From sequence record PX994957.1: a DNA stretch of 64,000 bases. One strand, 5' to 3'. The position numbers and the translations under genes were made by a program. The stretch comes from a phage. The notes under the pieces were generated by a model. It saw only the letters and a program-made list of their open reading frames with translations, did not search any database and was not told the origin of the DNA. This document shows positions 1 to 63,158 of this stretch, in pieces; positions within the stretch are counted from its first letter, which is position 1, and the number at the start of each line of letters is the position of its first letter.

Positions 1-56
1 AGTTTAGTTTTCAAAATTTCACGAATTGCTACTTTTTGTTCAGTCGTCAGTTTCAT
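1..56 (-). CDS. 5' end (about 18 codons, start codon at 56..54) of a second copy of the 102-aa ORF; runs off the left edge
   Basis: bases 1-158 are identical to 500-657, so the ATG at 56..54 and the upstream RBS copy those of ORF 247..555. Confidence 0.5.
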   Translation of the reverse strand, partial: MKLTTEQKVAIREILKTK

Positions 57-130
57 TTATTTACCTATCACAGTTTTAATATGAGTTGTTCCACGTTCTT
101 TAAGAGTGGAAAGCAATTTTTGGCATTTTT

Positions 131-190
131 CTAAATCAGATTTCCAACTATATGGTCTGCACGAATTGGTAGCTGTTGTACTTCAGACAT
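131..190 (-). pseudogene. 31: 5' fragment of gene 31 (GroES-like co-chaperonin): native codons MSEVQQLPIR(A), then out-of-frame junction sequence to a stop
   Basis: ATG at 190..188 with AAGGAA RBS; N-terminus matches recalled T4 gp31; duplication junction at 158/159 falls in codon 11. Confidence 0.6.
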
Positions 191-246
191 CGTTTTTCCT
201 TTTTGTTAACAGATGAATTAATAATAACAAATAATTCTTAAAGCAT

Positions 247-555
247 TTATTTACCAATAAATTGGAGTAAATGCTCAACTTTCATACCATTAACAGAAAT
301 CAATTTGTCAATAGAAAAACCTCGCCATGCACCAAGTTCAACATCAAATACTGGAATCATGTCAGTAGATTCTTTCCGAGTCGATTCAGTCAATTTACCA
401 GTTTGCATGGTTGGCATAAAGTCTGCGTCACGAGTACCTTTCATAGTACGAATAGTACCATCAGACTTTTCAAAAACTACGTTTGAAACACCCATGGACA
501 GTTTAGTTTTCAAAATTTCACGAATTGCTACTTTTTGTTCAGTCGTCAGTTTCAT
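247..555 (-). CDS. hypothetical early protein, 102 aa (T4 31.1 position)
   Basis: ORF track; lies wholly inside the duplicated unit. Confidence 0.6.
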   Translation of the reverse strand: MKLTTEQKVAIREILKTKLSMGVSNVVFEKSDGTIRTMKGTRDADFMPTMQTGKLTESTRKESTDMIPVFDVELGAWRGFSIDKLISVNGMKVEHLLQFIGK

Positions 556-792
556 TTATTTACCTATCACAGTTTTAATATGAGTTGTTCCACGTTCTTT
601 AAGAGTGGAAAGCAATTTTTGGCATTTTTCTAAATCAGATTTCCAACTATATGGTCTATCTATACTAGTCCAATCAGTTTTATAATACTGCTTCCATTTA
701 GAGAAAAAATATTTCTTATACTCTACAGCAAATGAGATGTTCTCATTAGAATAAGAACTAATTGCTGTGAGCTTTACCAAACGAAATTTCAT
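556..792 (-). CDS. hypothetical early protein, 78 aa (T4 31.2 position)
   Basis: ORF track; 3' end lies in the duplicated unit; start overlaps the cd stop. Confidence 0.55.
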   Translation of the reverse strand: MKFRLVKLTAISSYSNENISFAVEYKKYFFSKWKQYYKTDWTSIDRPYSWKSDLEKCQKLLSTLKERGTTHIKTVIGK

Positions 793-1373
793 TATTCACC
801 ACAGAATTCGTTGATATTTTCCCAGTTTAACTTATTCAAGTTTTTCTTAGGAACATTAAACACTTCAACACCTGCATTTCGCAGAATATCATCCCAGCCA
901 GGTTTATTTTTATCGTATGTTTCGCAATAAACCAGTTTTTTAATACCAGATTGAGCTATCGCTTTTGCACAATCTGGACAAGGAGAAAGTGTTACATACA
1001 TAGTAGCACCTTCAATAGAAGAACCATTTCGTGCAGCAAACAAAATTGCATTTAGTTCAGCATGAATTTCATTTTTAGACGACCATTCAGAGTGAGCGCT
1101 CCGGTGTTCTTTTGCCAAGACAAAACGATCAGTTGAACCAAATGATACGCATTCAGGCTTATGGCCTTGAATGATAGTATGTTTAGGCTTATTCAGCAAC
1201 CAACCTTGCTCAGCAGCATAATCACAACAGTTCACACCACCAGCAGGTGAACCATTATATCCGGTAGAAATAATACGTCCATTCTTTTCAATTACTGCTC
1301 CTACCTTCCAGGAGCAACATTTTGATTCCTGCGATACTAAATATGCAATTTGAAGTACTGTACTCGCTTTCAT
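792..1373 (-). CDS. cd: dCMP deaminase
   Basis: 193 aa; HAE and PCxxC zinc-binding deaminase motifs; matches recalled T4 Cd. Confidence 0.93.
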   Translation of the reverse strand: MKASTVLQIAYLVSQESKCCSWKVGAVIEKNGRIISTGYNGSPAGGVNCCDYAAEQGWLLNKPKHTIIQGHKPECVSFGSTDRFVLAKEHRSAHSEWSSKNEIHAELNAILFAARNGSSIEGATMYVTLSPCPDCAKAIAQSGIKKLVYCETYDKNKPGWDDILRNAGVEVFNVPKKNLNKLNWENINEFCGE

Positions 1374-1708
1374 TTCATAATCACCAGATAAGCAGATTTA
1401 GCAGTTTCAACACGATAAATTTCGTGACGAAGTTTAGTTATACTTTTAATAACAGAACTAATTATATTCTGCCCATCTTTAAAGCGGTTTTTCTTATCAA
1501 TAAAAATTGCGCCAACCATCTTTTTGTGAAGCTCAACTGGATACTTCGTCACAATAATAGCATCATATACGGAAGGATGAATACTATTTACTAGAGTGTC
1601 ATTCATTAAAGTTATTCTAATGAACTGTGCTGTTTCAGAGTCAAGCGCTCTATGATCGCCAGTATCATTTTCAAGACAATTATCAATTATATCAGTTAAA
1701 TTCATCAT
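1370..1708 (-). CDS. hypothetical early protein, 112 aa
   Basis: ORF track; overlapping stop/start with neighbours. Confidence 0.55.
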   Translation of the reverse strand: MMNLTDIIDNCLENDTGDHRALDSETAQFIRITLMNDTLVNSIHPSVYDAIIVTKYPVELHKKMVGAIFIDKKNRFKDGQNIISSVIKSITKLRHEIYRVETAKSAYLVIMK

Positions 1709-14464: not shown

Positions 14465-14506
14465 ATTATTTTCCTCTTTAACTATCAGCAGTATTGCCGA
14501 TAGTTG

Positions 14507-14537
14507 TATAGTACCATGGAAGGACAAGGATGTAAAC
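14507..14537 (-). promoter_or_regulatory. sigma70-type early promoter with conserved leader box
   Basis: minus strand GTTTAC-N18-TACTAT; shares leader box with other promoters in the window. Confidence 0.55.
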
Positions 14538-14562
14538 CGTTTTGTGAAAAAATTTTTGAAAT

Positions 14563-14588
14563 AAAAAAAGGGGACCCTAGAGGTCCCC
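14563..14588 (-). terminator. rho-independent terminator downstream of gene 32
   Basis: GGGGACC-CUAGA-GGUCCCC hairpin followed by U7 on minus strand. Confidence 0.8.
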
Positions 14589-23605: not shown

Positions 23606-26600
23606 ATGGCTACTTTAAAACAAATACAATTTAAAAGAAGCAAAACGGCAGGTCAACGTCCAGCTGCTTCAGTATTAGCCGAAGGTGAATTGGCTATAAA
23701 CTTAAAAGATCGTGTACTTTTTACTAAAGATGATCAAGGAAATATTATTGACTTAGGTTTTGCTAAAGGCGGTAGTATTGACGGGAATGTTATTCATAAA
23801 GGTAATTATAACCAAACTGGTGATTATACTTTAAACGGTACATTCACCCAGACTGGTAATTTTAATTTAACTGGTATTGCTCGAGTAACTCGTGATATTA
23901 TTGCTGCTGGGCAGATTATGACTGAAGGCGGAGAACTTATTACAAAAAGTTCAGGTACATCACATGTTCGTTTTCATGATTCAGCTGACCGTGAACGTGG
24001 AATCATTTTTTCTCCTGCTAATGATGGATTAACTACACAAGTAATTAACATCAGAGTTCAAGATTACAAAGCTGGTTCAGAAAGCACTTTCGTTTTTAAT
24101 GGAAATGGTTTGTTTTCTTCACCAGAAGTTTTTGGGTGGAAATCTGTATCAACTCCGGTAATTTATACCAATAAAGTTATCACCAATAAAAAAGTTAAAG
24201 ATGATTATGACATCTATTCGATGGCAGATAATGTTCCATTATCTGAAAGCACTACTGCTATTAATCATCTTCGTGTTATGCGTAATGCAGTTGGTTCTGG
24301 TATTTTCCATGAAGTTAAAGATAATGATGGAATAACATGGTATAGTGGAGATGGATTAGACGCTTATCTTTGGTCATTTACTTGGAGCGGCGGAATTAAA
24401 TCAAGTCACTCAATTTCCATCGGTTTAACACCCGGACCTAAGGATTACTCAATATTAGGACCGTCTAGTATCGCTTTAGGAGATAATGATACTGGATTTA
24501 AATGGCATCAAGACGGATATTATTTCAGTGTTAATAATGGCACAAAAACGTTTTTATTTAGCCCTAGCGAAACAACTAGCCTAAGAAAATTTGTAGCTGG
24601 ATATTCTACTAATGGAACCGATTTAACTACTCCTCCGACTGAAAACTATGCTCTTGCTACTGTCGTGACATATCATGACAATAACGCGTTTGGAGATGGT
24701 CAGACTCTTTTGGGGTATTATCAAGGCGGTAGATATCACCATTACTTTCGCGGAAGAGGAACAACTAATATTAATACTGCTGGAGGGTTATTAGTTACTC
24801 CTGGTAATATTGATGTTATTGGCGGTTCTGTTAATATCGATGGTAGAAATAATGCTTCTACAGCTCTGTTTAAAGGTAACACAACAGGTAGTAGTTCTGT
24901 GGATAACATGACAATTTCTGTGTGGGGTAATACATTTACTAATCCTAGCGAAGGTAATCGCAAAAATGTCATGGAAATTTCCGATGCAACTAGCTGGATG
25001 AGCTATATTCAAAGACTTACTACTGGTGAAGTAGAAATGAACGTTAACGGTTCATTTGAATCATCTGGTGTTACTGCTGGAAATAGAGGAGTTCACACAA
25101 CAGGCGAAATTTCATCTGGAGCAGTGAATGCTCTTCGCATTTGGAATGCAGATTATGGAGCCATTTTTAGACGTTCAGAAGGTAGTCTTCATATTATTCC
25201 AACTGCTTACGGTGAAGGCAAAAATGGTGATATCGGTCCACTTCGTCCATTTAGTATTGCTTTGGATACTGGTAAGGTTGTTATTCCAGATTTAGAATCA
25301 AGTTATAACACGTTTGCTGCAAATGGCTACATTAAATTTGCTGGTCACGGCGCGGGTGCAGGTGGTTATGATATTCAGTATTCACAAGCTGCTCCTATTT
25401 TCCAAGAAATCGATGATGCTGCTGTAAGCAAATATTATCCTATTGTTAAACAGAAGTTTTTAAACGGTAAAGCTGTCTGGTCTTTAGGTACTGAAATTAA
25501 TTCAGGTACATTTGTTTTACATCATCTAAAAGAAGATGGTTCACAAGGCCATACATCAAGATTTAATGCTGATGGTACAGTTAATTTCCCCGATAATGTT
25601 CAAGTCGGCGGCGGTGAAGCTACTATTGCTCGTAATGGTAATATCTTCTCTGATATTTGGAAAACATTTACTTCTGCCGGAGATACTACAAATATTCGCG
25701 ATGCGATAGCTACTCGTGTTGCCAAAGAAGGCGATACGATGACTGGCAAATTAATCGTTAGAAGAGGCTCTGACGCTATTAACATTGCTGCCGATGAAAA
25801 TGATTCTTGCTATTTACTTGGAACATCGGGTGGAGCGAATTCATGGTACATCGGTAAAGGAGGAGCAGATGACACTGCTTCATTTTATAATTTCAAAACT
25901 ACCGCAGGAATTACTCTTAATAGTGTTGGTGATATTGATTTTAACGTCAAAAATCAAGCTACTGCAGCTTCATTAAATTTTTATCGTTTATATTTAAATG
26001 GAAGACAATGGACAGCTACACAAGGTCACGGCTATAATAATCAATGGCAAACAGAAGCCCCATTCTTCGTTGACTTTGGTGAATCTGTTCCGAAAGATAG
26101 TTATATGCCTATAATTAAAGGAAGAAGCCAAATCATTAACGAAGGATATGCCACAAAGGCAGATTTTGGTATTATTCGATTGGGTGGAAATGCTACTTGG
26201 GGAAATGCAGTAATTCGTGTTGGTTCTGCGGAAAGCGGAGATAGCAGCCATCCTAATGCAATATTTGTGTTTCAGGCTAATGGTGATTTTAAAGCTCCGG
26301 CTGGCCTTCGTGCTGGTGTTAACTTGGGCGTCGGCACAATTCCAGTATGGGGTGGAGCATCTATCGCCATCGGGGATGATGATACCGGTTTAGTTCATGG
26401 CGGCGATGGTCGAATTAATATGTATGCTAACGCGCAGCATATAGCATCATGGGGCACGATGTATCAATCTCATCCAGGCCTTTGGGATTCAAATGGAGCT
26501 TTTTGGACAGAAGTTGGCAAAGCAATTATTTCTCATGGCCATTTAGTTCAGGCGAATGACAGCTATTCAACGTATGTCCGCGATGTTTATGTCCGCTCTG

Positions 26601-26932
26601 ATATTCGTGTTAAAAAGGACCTAGTTAAATTTGAAAATGCTTCTGAGAAGCTTTCAAAAATTAATGGTTACACTTATATGCAGAAGCGAGGCCTAGATGA
26701 AGAAGGTAATCAGAAATGGGAACCAAACGCTGGGTTAATTGCTCAAGAAGTTCAAGCTATTTTACCTGAATTGGTTGAAGGCGATCAGGATAGTGAAGCT
26801 TTACTTCGTTTGAACTATAACGGTGTAATTGGTTTAAATACAGCTGCAATCAATGAGCATACTGCAGAAATTGCAGAACTTAAGTCAGAGATTGAAGAGC
26901 TTAAAAAATTAGTTAAATCATTGTTAAAATAA
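23606..26932 (+). CDS. 37: long tail fibre distal subunit gp37 with C-terminal intramolecular chaperone (autoproteolytic) domain
   Basis: 1108 aa; C-terminal RSDIRVKKD ... LNYNGVIGL ... coiled-coil resembles S74-type self-cleaving chaperone domains. Confidence 0.9.
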
Positions 26933-26936
26933 AATG

Positions 26937-26950
26937 AGGGGCTTCGGCCC
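26937..26950 (+). promoter_or_regulatory. UUCG-tetraloop hairpin between gene 37 stop and gene 38 RBS
   Basis: GGGGC-UUCG-GCCCC immediately 5' of GGAGG and the gene 38 ATG. Confidence 0.5.
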
Positions 26951-26963
26951 CTTGGAGGTTTAT

Positions 26964-27758
26964 ATGGCAGTTGAAGGACCGTGGGTAGGATGGTCTGCGA
27001 GGGTACAAACTGGAGACCCTTGGATGGGTGGTGCCGCGCAGAGATTGAGAATGGGAATTCCGTTTTGGATGAGTAATATGATAGGTCGATCTGTTGAAGT
27101 AATTCACACCCTTGGAGCGGACCATAACTTTAATGGTCAATGGTTCCGAGATAGATGTTTTGAGGCAGGTAGTGCACCTATAGTGTTTAATATTACCGGA
27201 AATTTGGTATCATATTCTAGAGACGTTCCTTTATTCTTCATGTACGGAGATACACCTAATGAATATGTTCAGTTGAATATTGGTGGCGGCGTCCATATGT
27301 GGGGTAGAGGTGGACAAGGTGGATGGACTCATTCCGGCGGAGATGGTAATGGTCAACAAGGTGGTCATTGTATTCAAAATGACATCGGTGGACGATTAAG
27401 AATTAATAACGGTGGAGTAATTTGTGGTGGAGGTGGAGGTGGAGGTGGTATCGCTTATCGTCCTCACTCTGGTGCAAATTGGCAAGATATTGGTGGTGGT
27501 GGAGGAAGACCATTTGGCCCAGGAGGAGGCGGAGGTTATTCCGGCGGCGCAGCTTCTTATGATGGCCCAGGAGGTGGTTATAATTATGGTAATGCTCACT
27601 CTGGCCAGGGTGGTGATGCTGGCGCAAATGGACAAAATGCCTGGTATGATGGCGGTAAAGTTCTAAAAGTTGGAGCTGGTGGCGCTGCCGGATATGCTGT
27701 TATAGGATCAGCTCCAACATGGCAAAATGTTGGAGTAATATATGGTCCAAGGGTATAA
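26964..27758 (+). CDS. 38: tail fibre adhesin gp38 (T2-type, glycine-rich)
   Basis: 264 aa from [10 protein letters not shown] with GGAGG RBS; several poly-Gly blocks. Confidence 0.85.
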
Positions 27759-30538: not shown

Positions 30539-31174
30539 TCACAGTTCAGATGCTACAGTGATTACAGCTTCAATGTTTTCTGCCGAGCGTTTAATGTCAA
30601 GATACACATTACCGTTTTTAGCGATTTTACATGACATTCCGATATCAGTAAATTTCTGAATATGATGTTCCATCATTTTGTATCCAAAAATTCGCATATT
30701 TCCATTGTTGTTAATTTCAAAATTACGAATTCCGTGAGTACGTTTTTCTAAAATAGCGAGATAGTTACTACGATAAGTTTCAACCTTTTTAAGAACAAAT
30801 CCATTTTCATCTAAAAGTTTTAACATGAGGTCTTTATCTTCTTCCATATCAGAAGTAATTTCGCGAGCTTTACGAGTTGCTCGTTTTTTCAGTAGTTCCG
30901 GAGCATTTTCCTGTGCGTATAAAGTTGCTGCATTTGAAATAATATCCTGAGCTTCACCAGTAATGATTAATCCATCACCTGATTTCTCCACCAGGCCTTT
31001 TTTAATCAACACCCCAATATTACTATTAACTACTGCGTTACCTAAATCTGGATGCACCTCACGAACTTCTGCAGCTGTAATGAAATCTTTCTTAGCAATA
31101 GTAATTAAAATCGCAGCAGTTTTTTCATTCAGAACATCGTTAGAAGCTTTGATGATGTAAGTTACTTTAGACAT
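30539..31174 (-). CDS. motA: middle-transcription activator MotA (intact)
   Basis: 211 aa; matches recalled T4 MotA. Confidence 0.93.
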   Translation of the reverse strand: MSKVTYIIKASNDVLNEKTAAILITIAKKDFITAAEVREVHPDLGNAVVNSNIGVLIKKGLVEKSGDGLIITGEAQDIISNAATLYAQENAPELLKKRATRKAREITSDMEEDKDLMLKLLDENGFVLKKVETYRSNYLAILEKRTHGIRNFEINNNGNMRIFGYKMMEHHIQKFTDIGMSCKIAKNGNVYLDIKRSAENIEAVITVASEL

Positions 31175-31215
31175 TTTCTAATCTCCGTAATTCTGTATCA
31201 GTAGTTGATAGTTGT

Positions 31216-31245
31216 ATAGTACCACAGTATGCTTTGGTTGTAAAC
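31216..31245 (-). promoter_or_regulatory. sigma70-type early promoter for motA with conserved leader box
   Basis: minus strand GTTTAC-N18-TACTAT; leader box gtagttgatagttgtatagtacca. Confidence 0.6.
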
Positions 31246-31271
31246 CGTTTTGTGAAAAAAAAAATTAAAAT

Positions 31272-31297
31272 AAAAAAGGGAGAGCCTCGGCTCTCCC
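31272..31297 (-). terminator. rho-independent terminator (copy A)
   Basis: GGGAGAGCC-GAG-GCUCUCCC followed by U6 on minus strand. Confidence 0.7.
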
Positions 31298-31302
31298 TAA
31301 AA

Positions 31303-31452
31303 TTACTGCATGACTGTGATAACTGTCATGATAACACGTTGAATTCCGAACGCAAGAAGACCTCCTGCTACGGCTGGAACAACACCTAAACCCGCCAGTA
31401 AAATGCTACCGGATACTAATGCAGCGCTTGTAATACCTATGAATGGACTCAT
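31303..31452 (-). CDS. small hydrophobic membrane protein, 49 aa (copy A)
   Basis: own translation MSPFIGITSAALVSG...; ATG overlaps upstream stop (ATGA). Confidence 0.5.
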   Translation of the reverse strand: MSPFIGITSAALVSGSILLAGLGVVPAVAGGLLAFGIQRVIMTVITVMQ

Positions 31453-32174
31453 TTGATTTCCTCTAAATCTTTAGTGTATTCGGTAACTACATTAGTAGTT
31501 TTCCAATATTCGTTTTCTTCTTTCTTAGCTTTAGCTTCTTCAGCAAGTTTCTTTGCTTCGTCGGAAGTCATATGAAAAATATTCATTCCAACTAGTTTAT
31601 CAACATAAGAAGAATACATATCGATTTTCGAAAGTTCTTCGGTCAGTTCTTTGCGAGTTTTACCCTGCACAACGATTTCACCTGAAATTACTTTCTTAAT
31701 GAAATGTGCCTTGGCAAAGGCTAAACGAAAAGCTGACTCAGTTTCTTTGATTTTGTTATCAATTCGTTTTTGGACATAAGTTTTACGAACTTCAACAAAG
31801 TCTTTAATTAAATCAAGTTTTAACATGAGGTCTTTATCTTCTTCCATATCAGAAGTAATTTCGCGAGCTTTACGAGTTGCTCGTTTTTTCAGTAGTTCCG
31901 GAGCATTTTCCTGTGCGTATAAAGTTGCTGCATTTGAAATAATATCCTGAGCTTCACCAGTAATGATTAATCCATCACCTGATTTCTCCACCAGGCCTTT
32001 TTTAATCAACACCCCAATATTACTATTAACTACTGCGTTACCTAAATCTGGATGCACCTCACGAACTTCTGCAGCTGTAATGAAATCTTTCTTAGCAATA
32101 GTAATTAAAATCGCAGCAGTTTTTTCATTCAGAACATCGTTAGAAGCTTTGATGATGTAAGTTACTTTAGACAT
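31449..32174 (-). CDS. chimeric ORF: MotA residues 1-120 fused in frame to gp52 residues 322-442
   Basis: 241-aa ORF; N-terminal half identical to motA, C-terminal half identical to the gene 52 3' end; lies on the duplication junction 31816/31817. Confidence 0.8.
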   Translation of the reverse strand: MSKVTYIIKASNDVLNEKTAAILITIAKKDFITAAEVREVHPDLGNAVVNSNIGVLIKKGLVEKSGDGLIITGEAQDIISNAATLYAQENAPELLKKRATRKAREITSDMEEDKDLMLKLDLIKDFVEVRKTYVQKRIDNKIKETESAFRLAFAKAHFIKKVISGEIVVQGKTRKELTEELSKIDMYSSYVDKLVGMNIFHMTSDEAKKLAEEAKAKKEENEYWKTTNVVTEYTKDLEEIK

Positions 32175-32215
32175 TTTCTAATCTCCGTAATTCTGTATCA
32201 GTAGTTGATAGTTGT

Positions 32216-32245
32216 ATAGTACCACAGTATGCTTTGGTTGTAAAC
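32216..32245 (-). promoter_or_regulatory. duplicate copy of the motA early promoter, now upstream of the chimeric ORF
   Basis: identical to 31216-31245. Confidence 0.6.
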
Positions 32246-32271
32246 CGTTTTGTGAAAAAAAAAATTAAAAT

Positions 32272-32297
32272 AAAAAAGGGAGAGCCTCGGCTCTCCC
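32272..32297 (-). terminator. rho-independent terminator (copy B)
   Basis: identical to 31272-31297. Confidence 0.7.
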
Positions 32298-32302
32298 TAA
32301 AA

Positions 32303-32452
32303 TTACTGCATGACTGTGATAACTGTCATGATAACACGTTGAATTCCGAACGCAAGAAGACCTCCTGCTACGGCTGGAACAACACCTAAACCCGCCAGTA
32401 AAATGCTACCGGATACTAATGCAGCGCTTGTAATACCTATGAATGGACTCAT
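32303..32452 (-). CDS. small hydrophobic membrane protein, 49 aa (copy B)
   Basis: identical to 31303-31452. Confidence 0.5.
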   Translation of the reverse strand: MSPFIGITSAALVSGSILLAGLGVVPAVAGGLLAFGIQRVIMTVITVMQ

Positions 32453-33777
32453 TTGATTTCCTCTAAATCTTTAGTGTATTCGGTAACTACATTAGTAGTT
32501 TTCCAATATTCGTTTTCTTCTTTCTTAGCTTTAGCTTCTTCAGCAAGTTTCTTTGCTTCGTCGGAAGTCATATGAAAAATATTCATTCCAACTAGTTTAT
32601 CAACATAAGAAGAATACATATCGATTTTCGAAAGTTCTTCGGTCAGTTCTTTGCGAGTTTTACCCTGCACAACGATTTCACCTGAAATTACTTTCTTAAT
32701 GAAATGTGCCTTGGCAAAGGCTAAACGAAAAGCTGACTCAGTTTCTTTGATTTTGTTATCAATTCGTTTTTGGACATAAGTTTTACGAACTTCAACAAAG
32801 TCTTTAATTAAATCAACTACGTTATCGTAAACTTGTAGTTTTCCTTTCTCATTAATAACCGTAATATTCTGAGAACGACGCTCAATCAACCCGAAGTCTT
32901 TCATAATTTTTGCATGGCGTTCTTCTTCGTTATCGCTCAAAGAATATTCTTTACGGAATTTAACTTTGAATCCAAAACCATGCTCACCACAAGCATCATC
33001 CCATGTAATGAAGCCTTTATCTTCAAGTGGGTCTAAGATTTTACTCACATAAGTTTCACGATCATACTTATACGGAATCTCAGTGATATGCATTTGAGTT
33101 CGTGAAGTAAACTTATATGTTCCACGAATTTCATATTGGCCATCAATCTCAACGACTTCACCACGAAATTCTGGGAATTCTACCTTCGGTTTAGTTACTT
33201 TCTTTCCTTGAAGAGCTTGTAATACAGCTTTCTTAACAGAAGAAACACTATGAGGAAGAATGTAAGTTGCATAACCAGTTGCAATACCGGAAACACCATT
33301 AAGAAGAACAGTAGGAATAATAGGCAAATAGAAAGCAGGCGGAATGTGTTCTTTATCTTGATGTACCGGAGCATATTCAGTATCTTTATATACGTTATAG
33401 AAATTTTTACTTACACGAGCAAAAATATAACGACTTGCTGCTGCTTTTTGGACGGTACGAGAACCAAAGTTTCCTTGACCATCTAACAGAGGAAAATTAT
33501 TATTCCAAGTGTTAGCCATCAAAGCACCTGCGTCTTGCGCAGAGTTTTCACCATGATGATATCCAAGGTCCGCTACACCACCTGCAATAGAAGCGAGTTT
33601 GTGAAACTTATCTTTATTTCCTCGTGCCAAATCAAGAGCTCGAGCAATAACAAATCGTTGAACTGGCTTAAATCCGTCAATCATATTTGGAATGGCACGA
33701 TTTTCAACCGTGTACATAGCATAAGCCAATGCTTCATTATCAATGATACTTTTTAAATCGCGATTATTCAGTTGCAT
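32449..33777 (-). CDS. 52: DNA topoisomerase II medium subunit gp52 (GyrA-like, intact)
   Basis: 442 aa; catalytic-Tyr region AASRYI; T4 synteny. Confidence 0.93.
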   Translation of the reverse strand: MQLNNRDLKSIIDNEALAYAMYTVENRAIPNMIDGFKPVQRFVIARALDLARGNKDKFHKLASIAGGVADLGYHHGENSAQDAGALMANTWNNNFPLLDGQGNFGSRTVQKAAASRYIFARVSKNFYNVYKDTEYAPVHQDKEHIPPAFYLPIIPTVLLNGVSGIATGYATYILPHSVSSVKKAVLQALQGKKVTKPKVEFPEFRGEVVEIDGQYEIRGTYKFTSRTQMHITEIPYKYDRETYVSKILDPLEDKGFITWDDACGEHGFGFKVKFRKEYSLSDNEEERHAKIMKDFGLIERRSQNITVINEKGKLQVYDNVVDLIKDFVEVRKTYVQKRIDNKIKETESAFRLAFAKAHFIKKVISGEIVVQGKTRKELTEELSKIDMYSSYVDKLVGMNIFHMTSDEAKKLAEEAKAKKEENEYWKTTNVVTEYTKDLEEIK

Positions 33778-35323: not shown

Positions 35324-35350
35324 TTTGTGTTCCTCCGTAGTTGATAGTTG

Positions 35351-35381
35351 TATAGTACCACAGAGGAACAGTCTTGTAAAC
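35351..35381 (-). promoter_or_regulatory. sigma70-type early promoter with conserved leader box
   Basis: minus strand GTTTAC-N18-TACTAT. Confidence 0.55.
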
Positions 35382-35598
35382 AACTTTTTTAAAAATATTC
35401 GTAATAAATGTGAATACCAACTACTACCGCTGAAACCTGTGCAACCCACCACGCGCAAGCAATAAGTACAGAATTAAAAATTTTCATAATAACCTCATCA
35501 CAAAAGTAAATGTTAAACAAATTAATGGAATACTAATTAACCAAACAAAACACCACCATAATGAACTCATAGTTCAATCTCAACGATTTTCATTTTAC

Positions 35599-35817: not shown

Positions 35818-35838
35818 ATCCGTATCAGTTGATAGTTG

Positions 35839-35869
35839 TATATTACCACAGTCCTTGTGGTATGTAAAC
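35839..35869 (-). promoter_or_regulatory. sigma70-type early promoter with CCACA-N5-TGTGG palindrome between -35 and -10
   Basis: minus strand GTTTAC ... CCACAAGGACTGTGG TAATAT. Confidence 0.55.
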
Positions 35870-35884
35870 CGTTTGTGAAAATTT

Positions 35885-44004: not shown

Positions 44005-44088
44005 GTTATTTTCTGTATCAGTAGTTGATATTGATATAGTACCATAATCAACTACTGATGTATATAGTTTTATGAAAAAATTTAAACT

Positions 44089-44586
44089 TTATGCACAGCG
44101 AGCTTTGCTATAGTGTTTAATCCAGCTTTCAGGAATGACTTTGTATGTTCCTAAAAATACCGCGTTGTACAGCTTAACACCGTCTTCTACCCACTGATCG
44201 GTAATGTATGCGCACATAGCACGAGTACGGTGTTTTTGAACAACCCCTTCCTCATCTTCAGTAAATTCGAATTCATAAGGAGCAACGAACTTAATAGCCT
44301 GACCGAGTTTCCACTTAAAGTATACACCTACATGCGAAGTATCAATCGTTTCAATTCCTTTAGCAGGAACAGCTTTCAAAAACGCAGATTCAAGAAATTT
44401 CGCACGAACATAGCCAAACTGAGGTTTAGACTTTCCATCTTTAGGAATGATACGCACTTTTACTTCAGAATCTTCATCTTTAACGCCGTGTTTAAGCTGA
44501 ATGCTTACAATTTCGACCAATTTTCCTGCTGCTTTAGAACGGGATTTATCAGATACACGAGCAATTTCACCAATATTAATAATCAT
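44089..44586 (-). CDS. hypothetical protein, 165 aa; shares a C-terminal module with ORF 44663..45202
   Basis: ORF track; shared motif ITDQWVEDGVKLYNAVF. Confidence 0.6.
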   Translation of the reverse strand: MIINIGEIARVSDKSRSKAAGKLVEIVSIQLKHGVKDEDSEVKVRIIPKDGKSKPQFGYVRAKFLESAFLKAVPAKGIETIDTSHVGVYFKWKLGQAIKFVAPYEFEFTEDEEGVVQKHRTRAMCAYITDQWVEDGVKLYNAVFLGTYKVIPESWIKHYSKARCA

Positions 44587-55335: not shown

Positions 55336-55503
55336 TTTTACTCTTCTTTTTCTTTAGATTCCTCTTTCTTCTTTTTAGGAATCTGTTCAGGACCTTTATT
55401 TACTACAGCGCCCGACGTTGTTCCAGTAGAGATATTTTCAGGATTACCACCTGAATCTCCAGCGACCATATCTTCTTTGATAAATTCTTTATATGTTTTC
55501 ATA

Positions 55504-55860
55504 TTAACCTCTATTCATAAAAGCATTAAAAATTTGGTCATCAATAGATGGAATAGCAACCTTTTCGGCATCATTTAGCAAATCATTAATTTCATCAGAT
55601 AGCATAACACATGTGCCTTTATTTCCTGTAATTGTTACTGCGCAATTACGAACGTTTTCTTTATCAAATTTTAGGTTAATATTTTCGTAGTGAAAATCCT
55701 TTAATGCCGAATATATCTTTAAAATGAAATTGTCTTTTACTACAATAAACCCAACCTCACTATTAAAACGTGGTTCATGGAAACTGTAATAAACCTTTTC
55801 ATCTATAAAATCGTATGAAATTTTTTCCATTTTTAAATATGAAAATTCAGAACTATACAT
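55504..55860 (-). CDS. hypothetical protein, 118 aa (61.1 position); shares a C-terminal tail with the next ORF
   Basis: ORF track; tail SIDDQIFNAFMNRG. Confidence 0.55.
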   Translation of the reverse strand: MYSSEFSYLKMEKISYDFIDEKVYYSFHEPRFNSEVGFIVVKDNFILKIYSALKDFHYENINLKFDKENVRNCAVTITGNKGTCVMLSDEINDLLNDAEKVAIPSIDDQIFNAFMNRG

Positions 55861-55861
55861 A

Positions 55862-56503
55862 TTAACCTTTATTCATAAAAGCATTAAAAATTTGATCATC
55901 AATAGAAACATTTACTTTAGACTGTTTTTCTGATGGTAATTCATATCCACATATTACAATTTTGTGATCAATATCAAAATACACAGAAGCAATATGATTA
56001 ATGATGTTTTCAGTAAAGTCTAAATCAACATCAATATCTTTTTGACCACAGCCCAAAGGATAAATAATGCGAGTAATTCGATTATCTTTAACAAATATTC
56101 CACCGACATACTCTGTGCTGCGTTTAAAGTTTACACGTTTCCTAAATGAAAAATATTCAGGTTCTTTATGAGCCCGACTCATAGGACACAATGAGTAGCT
56201 AGAATAAGAGATGTCAAATCCTACACCTTCAATATGAGCCAACGCGTCATGATTAAACCAATTATAATCATATGCCAAATCCATTATATTGTAATATGTG
56301 AAAGGCACCGGATTAACATCATGTGTTGTACCTTTAAAATCTGCCCAGGCAACGATTTCGTTATCTTTAACAATTACAAAAATTGTGTCAATAAGATATC
56401 CACGGTTATTTTCATCAGGCGTTATATTATAACATTGTGCATCAGGAAATTTACCGTATTTAAACGGTGGATTTTTGTGCATATAATAAATCATATTATT
56501 CAC
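55862..56503 (-). CDS. hypothetical protein, 213 aa (61.2 position)
   Basis: ORF track; tail SIDDQIFNAFMNKG. Confidence 0.55.
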   Translation of the reverse strand: MNNMIYYMHKNPPFKYGKFPDAQCYNITPDENNRGYLIDTIFVIVKDNEIVAWADFKGTTHDVNPVPFTYYNIMDLAYDYNWFNHDALAHIEGVGFDISYSSYSLCPMSRAHKEPEYFSFRKRVNFKRSTEYVGGIFVKDNRITRIIYPLGCGQKDIDVDLDFTENIINHIASVYFDIDHKIVICGYELPSEKQSKVNVSIDDQIFNAFMNKG

Positions 56504-63004: not shown

Positions 63005-63040
63005 TTTATTCTCCAAATCCGTATCAGTAGTTGATAGTTG

Positions 63041-63071
63041 TATAGTACCATGGAAGAACATTCTTGTAAAC
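63041..63071 (-). promoter_or_regulatory. sigma70-type early promoter with conserved leader box
   Basis: minus strand GTTTAC-N18-TACTAT. Confidence 0.55.
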
Positions 63072-63158
63072 AGTTTTGTGAAAATTTTTTAGGGAATTTT
63101 AAATGTCCAGAATCATCTGTTTTTCATAAGTATAGATTTATATTACTTGTATGAAAAA

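Follow-up and report, generated by a model that had tools for sequence, protein, structure and literature searches.

The phages T4 and T6 offer well-documented cases of tandem segmental duplication and amplification (PMC9391042; PMC13096335). In evolved T4, dmd-tifA was amplified at unique microhomologies, typically of 6-10 bp, and compensating deletions were forced by headful packaging, which penalises extra DNA (PMC9391042). In T6, a 718-bp tRNA-Tyr/segB unit was amplified, with a truncated SegB (PMC13096335). These cases, together with the rII and genes 16-18 duplications of T4, are head-to-tail direct repeats of 0.5 to several kb with one novel junction, in which the flanking genes are intact and a truncated or fused open reading frame (ORF) is possible at the junction. 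We analysed a 64,000-nt stretch of phage record PX994957.1 (the window, to which all coordinates refer unless another record is named). It is a Tequatrovirus (T4-like) segment carrying an exact 1000-bp tandem duplication that runs from inside motA, the gene of the activator of T4 middle promoters, into gene 52, the gene of the topoisomerase II medium subunit. The duplication is present in the sequence but, as far as can be judged from the letters, is most likely an artefact of sequence construction and probably not a feature of the living phage genome.

The 1000-bp repeat and a second exact repeat

Positions 30815-31816 and 31815-32816 were found to be identical base for base, a 1002-nt identity with a period of exactly 1000 and 0 mismatches, in agreement with a sequence-only reading of this DNA made before the present analysis. 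No other run of at least 15 nt at a period of 1000 occurs in the window. When both duplications described here were collapsed, the longest other exact direct repeat in the window was 30 nt, as compared with 46 nt in phage CAM-21 over a collinear 68 kb, so that the 1000-bp repeat is far beyond chance. The repeated segments are as follows.

30815..31814: copy 1 of the 1000-bp unit, starting near motA codon 120 and running by way of the 5' end of motA, the early promoter, the terminator and motA.1 into the last 121 codons of gene 52; exact identity to 31815-32814
31815..32814: copy 2 of the 1000-bp unit; exact identity to 30815-31814
31815..31816: novel junction with an AA overlap, the same AA being present at 30815-30816 and 32815-32816; to its left lies gene 52 sequence, to its right the interior of motA; junction sequence CTTTAATTAAATCAAGTTTTAACATGAGGT
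1..657: second novel exact tandem duplication, 1-158 being equal to 500-657 with a period of 499; the unit is 159-657, and the left end of the window truncates copy 1

A period of exactly 1000 with no mismatch is a round decimal length without a biological reason, which argues for an artefact; by a rough estimate, the chance of a natural duplication falling on exactly 1000 bp is well under 1 in 1000. The sequence-only reading had itself cautioned that the period might reflect an assembly or construction artefact, and this caveat has become the better-supported interpretation, strengthened by the second exact and blunt duplication. The latter was detected by a whole-window repeat scan, and its identity runs off the left edge. 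The 499-bp unit takes in the beginning of gene 31, the whole of 31.1 and a portion of 31.2. At its 158|159 junction, the microhomology is 0 bp and a gene 31 stub of 19 codons, out of frame, is left. The presence of a second exact novel duplication within the same 64 kb also points to an artefact.

As in the T-even duplications, the 1000-bp unit is repeated head to tail, with a single novel junction and with flanks collinear with relatives. Unlike them, the present events have no meaningful short homology at the unit ends. The 2-bp AA microhomology proposed in the sequence-only reading does exist, but it stands at chance level (P=0.18): when a blunt 1000-bp copy was placed at random positions in the window sequence by simulation, 53% of placements gave 0 bp of extra match and 18% gave at least 2 bp. 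Junction homologies of 0 bp and 2 bp thus fit blunt random placement, as compared with the 6-10 bp typical of T4 amplifications, and this again favours an artefact. Furthermore, the known T-even duplications are dosage-selected, often exceed two copies and are accompanied by compensating deletions, whereas one period here is exactly 1000 bp, only two copies are present and no selective driver is evident.

We considered the possibility that the repeat is a genuine, recent and unselected spontaneous duplication in a Tequatrovirus, and regard it as a possible but rather unlikely origin. Illegitimate recombination, either microhomology- or topoisomerase-mediated, or template switching between sister or concatemeric copies would have joined gene 52 at codon ~322 to motA at codon ~120 at the AA dinucleotide, and the product, neutral or slightly deleterious, would have been caught before homologous recombination removed the copy. 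The documented cases in T4 and T6 speak in its favour, as does the load on the capsid, since the terminal redundancy of T4, ~3.3 kb, has room for the 1.5 kb of extra DNA (PMC9391042). It is opposed by the period of exactly 1000 bp, by the need for two independent exact events in 64 kb at junction homologies of 0 bp and 2 bp, and by the want of a driver that could hold such an unstable repeat in place. Exact 1-kb tandem repeats would be expected to be lost quickly through the very active homologous recombination of T4, unless selected.

Copy number in relatives and the rest of the window

The motA/gene 52 locus is 99.4% identical to that of Escherichia virus CAM-21 and 97.5% identical to that of T4. 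A comparison with related T-even genomes, which the sequence-only reading had suggested as a check, gave single-copy relatives at the locus and no record across the junction. In a phage collection of 50,697 records, a 4001-nt locus query was covered to at least 80% by 478 records, and all rows listed align as a single stretch of ~3000 nt, that is, as one copy. A 200-nt junction query was spanned by 0 of the 50,697 records, and the chimeric 241-aa protein encoded across the junction was not present among 153 billion gene positions. Identical gp52 was found on 21 contigs; the eight contigs listed were all single-copy, with the order 52, motA.1, motA, and one further contig (L009) and an IMG/VR contig (L017) were likewise single-copy at the locus. 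Neither the viral, genome and metagenome contig collections nor the complete E. coli genomes contained the junction 30-mer. As a positive control, a native 30-mer was recovered from only one IMG/VR contig, which makes the IMG/VR scan a weak one, and the single-copy argument is therefore carried by the ~500 GenBank relatives.

The second duplication gave a similar picture. Relatives cover window positions 1-1400 in 1242 nt, equal to 1400 minus 158. Most of the 158|159 junction query was covered by 497 records, and in all 15 rows listed it falls into two parts lying 499 nt apart. In G157lw, a single copy matches window positions 159-1400 at 100% identity, with a different sequence to the left of 159, and the 158|159 junction was not found in IMG/VR, where the scan was weak. 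Since the ~480-500 Tequatrovirus relatives are single-copy and the junction and the chimera occur in no collection searched, the distribution argues for an artefact; the absence of both events from these relatives and collections also counts against a spontaneous duplication of the kind described above.

The same comparison bears on a further explanation, namely that the two copies are old paralogues native to the phage lineage. Beyond the mere presence of two copies, nothing speaks for this. No relative has two copies, and the orthologous DNA of relatives differs by 1-3%, as against 100% identity between the two copies over 1000 nt, so that ancient paralogy is refuted and its probability is practically nil. 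Among the contigs, the highest identity was 99.47% (L012, the best of the five contigs L009-L013, which carry identical gp38), and the contigs L001-L008, with identical gp52, reached at most 99.0%; the locus flanks showed at most ~98% identity within the phage collection. A 36-mer specific to the window had 0 matches among the viral, genome and metagenome contigs. With respect to the tail fibre, gp37 (23606-26932), the long-tail-fibre distal subunit of 1108 aa, had no exact match in any collection searched, while the adjoining gp38 adhesin (26934-27758) was identical in five contigs, a pattern typical of mosaicism at the receptor-binding tip.

Apart from the two duplications, the window is collinear with CAM-21, and the differences are ordinary mosaic indels; no inversions or other exact insertions that would hint at wholesale simulation were seen in the window. 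The otherwise ordinary character of the window, in which the longest exact repeat left is the 30-nt one, adds to the case for an artefact. On the other hand, a window that resembles a natural mosaic genome with conserved proteins is also what a genuine unselected duplication would be set in. The sequence that the window lacks relative to CAM-21 likewise consists of ordinary mosaic indels, and the one that was checked is missing from G157lw as well. This is a 528-nt ORF, CAM-21_123 (73571-74098 in the CAM-21 record), which lies between cd.2 and cd.3 and is missing at window position ~1940, an ordinary presence/absence polymorphism. A 49-nt direct repeat, 96% identical, is present at 55500-55548 and 55858-55906, a distance of 358 nt; CAM-21 also has, at this spacing, an exact core of 25 nt, indicating that this repeat is native to the lineage.

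The motA/gene 52 locus and its chimeric reading frame

On the minus strand, the locus reads gene 52, motA.1, hairpin, promoter, the 241-aa ORF, motA.1, hairpin, promoter and motA. The individual features are listed below.

30539..31174, minus strand: intact motA, 211 aa; Pfam MotA_activ at 2-96 and MotCF at 106-208, both full length; PDB 6K4Y chain M
31216..31244, minus strand: motA early promoter, copy A; TTTACA, 17 nt, TG-TACTAT; a member of a repeated early-promoter family
31277..31298, minus strand: terminator-like hairpin with T-run, copy A, 3' of motA.1; 9-bp stem with 6 GC pairs, TTTTTATTTT
31303..31452, minus strand: motA.1, copy A, a 49-aa hydrophobic ORF, 3' of the chimeric ORF
31449..32174, minus strand: chimeric ORF MotA(1-120)::gp52(322-442), 241 aa, in frame
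32216..32244, minus strand: motA early promoter, copy B, TTTACA-17-TG-TACTAT, upstream of the chimeric ORF
32277..32298, minus strand: terminator-like hairpin with T-run, copy B, inside copy 2 of the unit
32303..32452, minus strand: motA.1, copy B, 49 aa, in its native place after gene 52
32449..33777, minus strand: intact gene 52, topoisomerase II medium subunit, 442 aa; Pfam DNA_topoisoIV at 27-429; PDB 8YO3/8YLU

The extent of the unit, the intact motA and gene 52, and the duplicated promoter and terminator, all described in the sequence-only reading, were recovered in the window. The sole complete gene within the unit is motA.1, whose homologue is annotated as motA.1 in CAM-21 and belongs to PF26886 Phage_T4_Y16H in relatives. 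In some relatives, an extra 75-aa ORF without a Pfam match lies between motA.1 and motA (7614-7841 in L004, 7610-7837 in L005 and 14505-14732 in L009); it is missing from the window, CAM-21 and T4, which marks the motA.1/motA intergenic region as a polymorphic insertion site. In the records of CAM-21 (OP611477.1) and T4 (OL964735.1), the MotA activator is labelled 'flagellar motor protein', a misannotation arising from a name collision with bacterial MotA.

The duplicated promoter fits the UP/-35/TGn/-10 architecture of early promoters (reviewed in PMC2988021). It belongs to a repeat family of ~50-75 nt on the minus strand, GTTTACA..TG.TACTAT with an A/T-rich upstream part, whose members (families D2/D3) lie at 14495-14572, 31203-31280, 32203-32280, 35339-35416, 35827-35874, 44023-44100 and 63029-63106 and share exact cores of 27-30 nt. 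One 30-nt exact repeat of this kind is found at 31195-31224 and again at 63021-63050, 31826 nt further downstream. Three independent SRA-derived Logan contigs (L010, L011 and L012) all end ~46 nt upstream of the motA ATG, corresponding to window position 31220. We considered whether these ends might be a trace of the duplication and rejected this, as the break falls inside the 30-nt promoter repeat and not at the duplication boundaries; it was probably this promoter repeat, rather than the duplication, that broke the three assemblies.

In the chimeric ORF, MotA residues 1-120 are joined exactly to gp52 residues 322-442, and the predicted peptide across the join reads ...DKDLMLKL|DLIKDFVEV...; the PDB matches are 6K4Y/1I1S for the MotA part and 8YO3/8YLU for the gp52 part. 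Its N-terminal activation domain is complete (PF09114, residues 2-96, full profile, 202 bits), and residues 1-96 match PDB 1I1S over its full length (E=1e-53). Of the C-terminal double-wing DNA-binding domain (PF09158), by which MotA reads the MotA box, only profile positions 1-22 of 103 are matched, at 19.7 bits, under the 25-bit cut-off. Thus, the description of an in-frame 241-aa fusion without the MotA DNA-binding domain agrees with the sequence and with the Pfam and PDB matches. The gp52 part covers positions 302-418 of 432 in the DNA_topoisoIV profile and is without the WHD, which holds the catalytic tyrosine, and without the Tower domain. In gp52, the domain order is WHD, Tower, Coiled-coil, and the coiled-coil domain holds the bottom dimer interface (PMC11461880), while the MotA activation domain contacts sigma70 region 4 (PMC6755090; PMC2988021). 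As compared with the MotA N-terminal domain alone (PDB 1I1S, 1BJA), the chimera would carry the same complete sigma70-contacting domain, but would also have the linker, a 15-residue part of the DNA-binding domain and, as a foreign element, a segment of 121 residues from the gp52 coiled-coil.

The geometry of the repeat accounts for this ORF. Because the duplication ends inside two co-directional genes, both genes are kept intact and one fusion arises between them, and such a fusion is in frame one time in three; the in-frame chimera is therefore a by-product. Every tandem duplication leaves its flanking genes intact, so that the intact motA and gene 52 are not evidence for biology. That one junction is in frame and the other out of frame is what chance placement predicts, in line with an artefact. 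In the sequence-only reading, the chimera was put forward as a new gene that might interfere with middle transcription. Beyond the ORF, we found nothing to sustain this proposal: the fusion is found in none of ~480 relatives or of the protein and DNA collections searched, and the junction has no meaningful microhomology.

If the duplication were real, the duplicated early promoter would be expected to drive a transcript carrying the chimera, a fusion of the MotA N-terminal domain to the gp52 coiled-coil, and a second motA.1, ending at the duplicated hairpin. That the unit holds a complete promoter, ORFs and a terminator, and would thus be predicted to be expressed, and that all essential genes are intact, are points in favour of a genuine duplication even without selection. 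A duplication kept by selection appears improbable. The advantage could lie in motA.1 expressed earlier or at a higher level from the duplicated early promoter, or in the chimera itself, which could compete with MotA for sigma70 region 4 at the AsiA-remodelled polymerase, as it has a complete activation domain but no DNA-binding domain, or might associate with itself or with gp52 by way of the coiled-coil dimer interface. Consistent with this, motA.1 sits in copy A behind a strong early-type promoter, the activation domain that contacts sigma70 is complete, the gp52 fragment (profile positions 302-418) lies within the domain that holds the bottom dimer interface, and T4 and T6 provide examples of small accessory genes amplified under selection (PMC9391042; PMC13096335). 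However, every objection to an unselected duplication applies here too, three or more copies together with compensating deletions are usual where an amplification is selected (PMC9391042), no relative has this or a similar event at the locus, and a DNA-binding-deficient MotA fragment would more plausibly harm than help middle transcription.

Origin of the duplications and consequences

Taken together, these results suggest that the 1000-bp block was probably written twice while the sequence was being put together. Two overlapping pieces may have been joined without merging a 1000-bp overlap, or an in-silico copy of the block may have been placed immediately behind the original; the sequence alone does not tell these non-biological routes apart. 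In either case, the geometry of the copy would by itself produce the chimeric ORF and duplicate motA.1, the promoter and the terminator. Short-read assemblers would be expected to collapse repeats of this kind and not to display them. With identical copies, a round or arbitrary block length, blunt junctions, recurrence in the same sequence and no counterpart in relatives, the two events resemble unmerged-overlap and copy-paste artefacts. They differ in the period of 499, which is not round, and they cannot be traced to any particular pipeline.

Several observations weigh against a non-biological origin. The period of 499 means that no single simple fixed-overlap rule covers both events; such a chunk-overlap rule was considered and rejected, as the junction spacing of ~31,657 nt and the periods of 499 and 1000 fit no simple scheme. 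T4-type phages do form tandem duplications, with microhomologies of 2-10 bp reported (PMC9391042), and illegitimate recombination in vitro has been ascribed to the T4 topoisomerase (PMC11461880). Neither event disrupts a gene, and the phage would be viable, although this is true of any tandem duplication. We nevertheless prefer an artefact of sequence construction as the probable explanation of both repeats.

If the duplications are artefacts, annotation should leave out the gene-31 stub, the extra motA.1 and the 241-aa "MotA-topoisomerase fusion", and none of the three should find its way into protein databases. If the 1000-bp repeat were instead real, it would join the known T-even tandem duplications, with an unusual by-product: an early-expressed, DNA-binding-deficient MotA activation domain, which may serve as a natural probe of sigma appropriation. 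Should it be both real and maintained, for which we see only a slim chance, the early-promoter fusion of the MotA activation domain to the gp52 coiled-coil, together with the extra motA.1, could act as a modulator that titrates AsiA-remodelled sigma70 or pairs with gp52, and the 499-bp event would mark a lineage with raised illegitimate recombination. A real duplication would be of modest interest to specialists in T4 transcription and would not open a new field.

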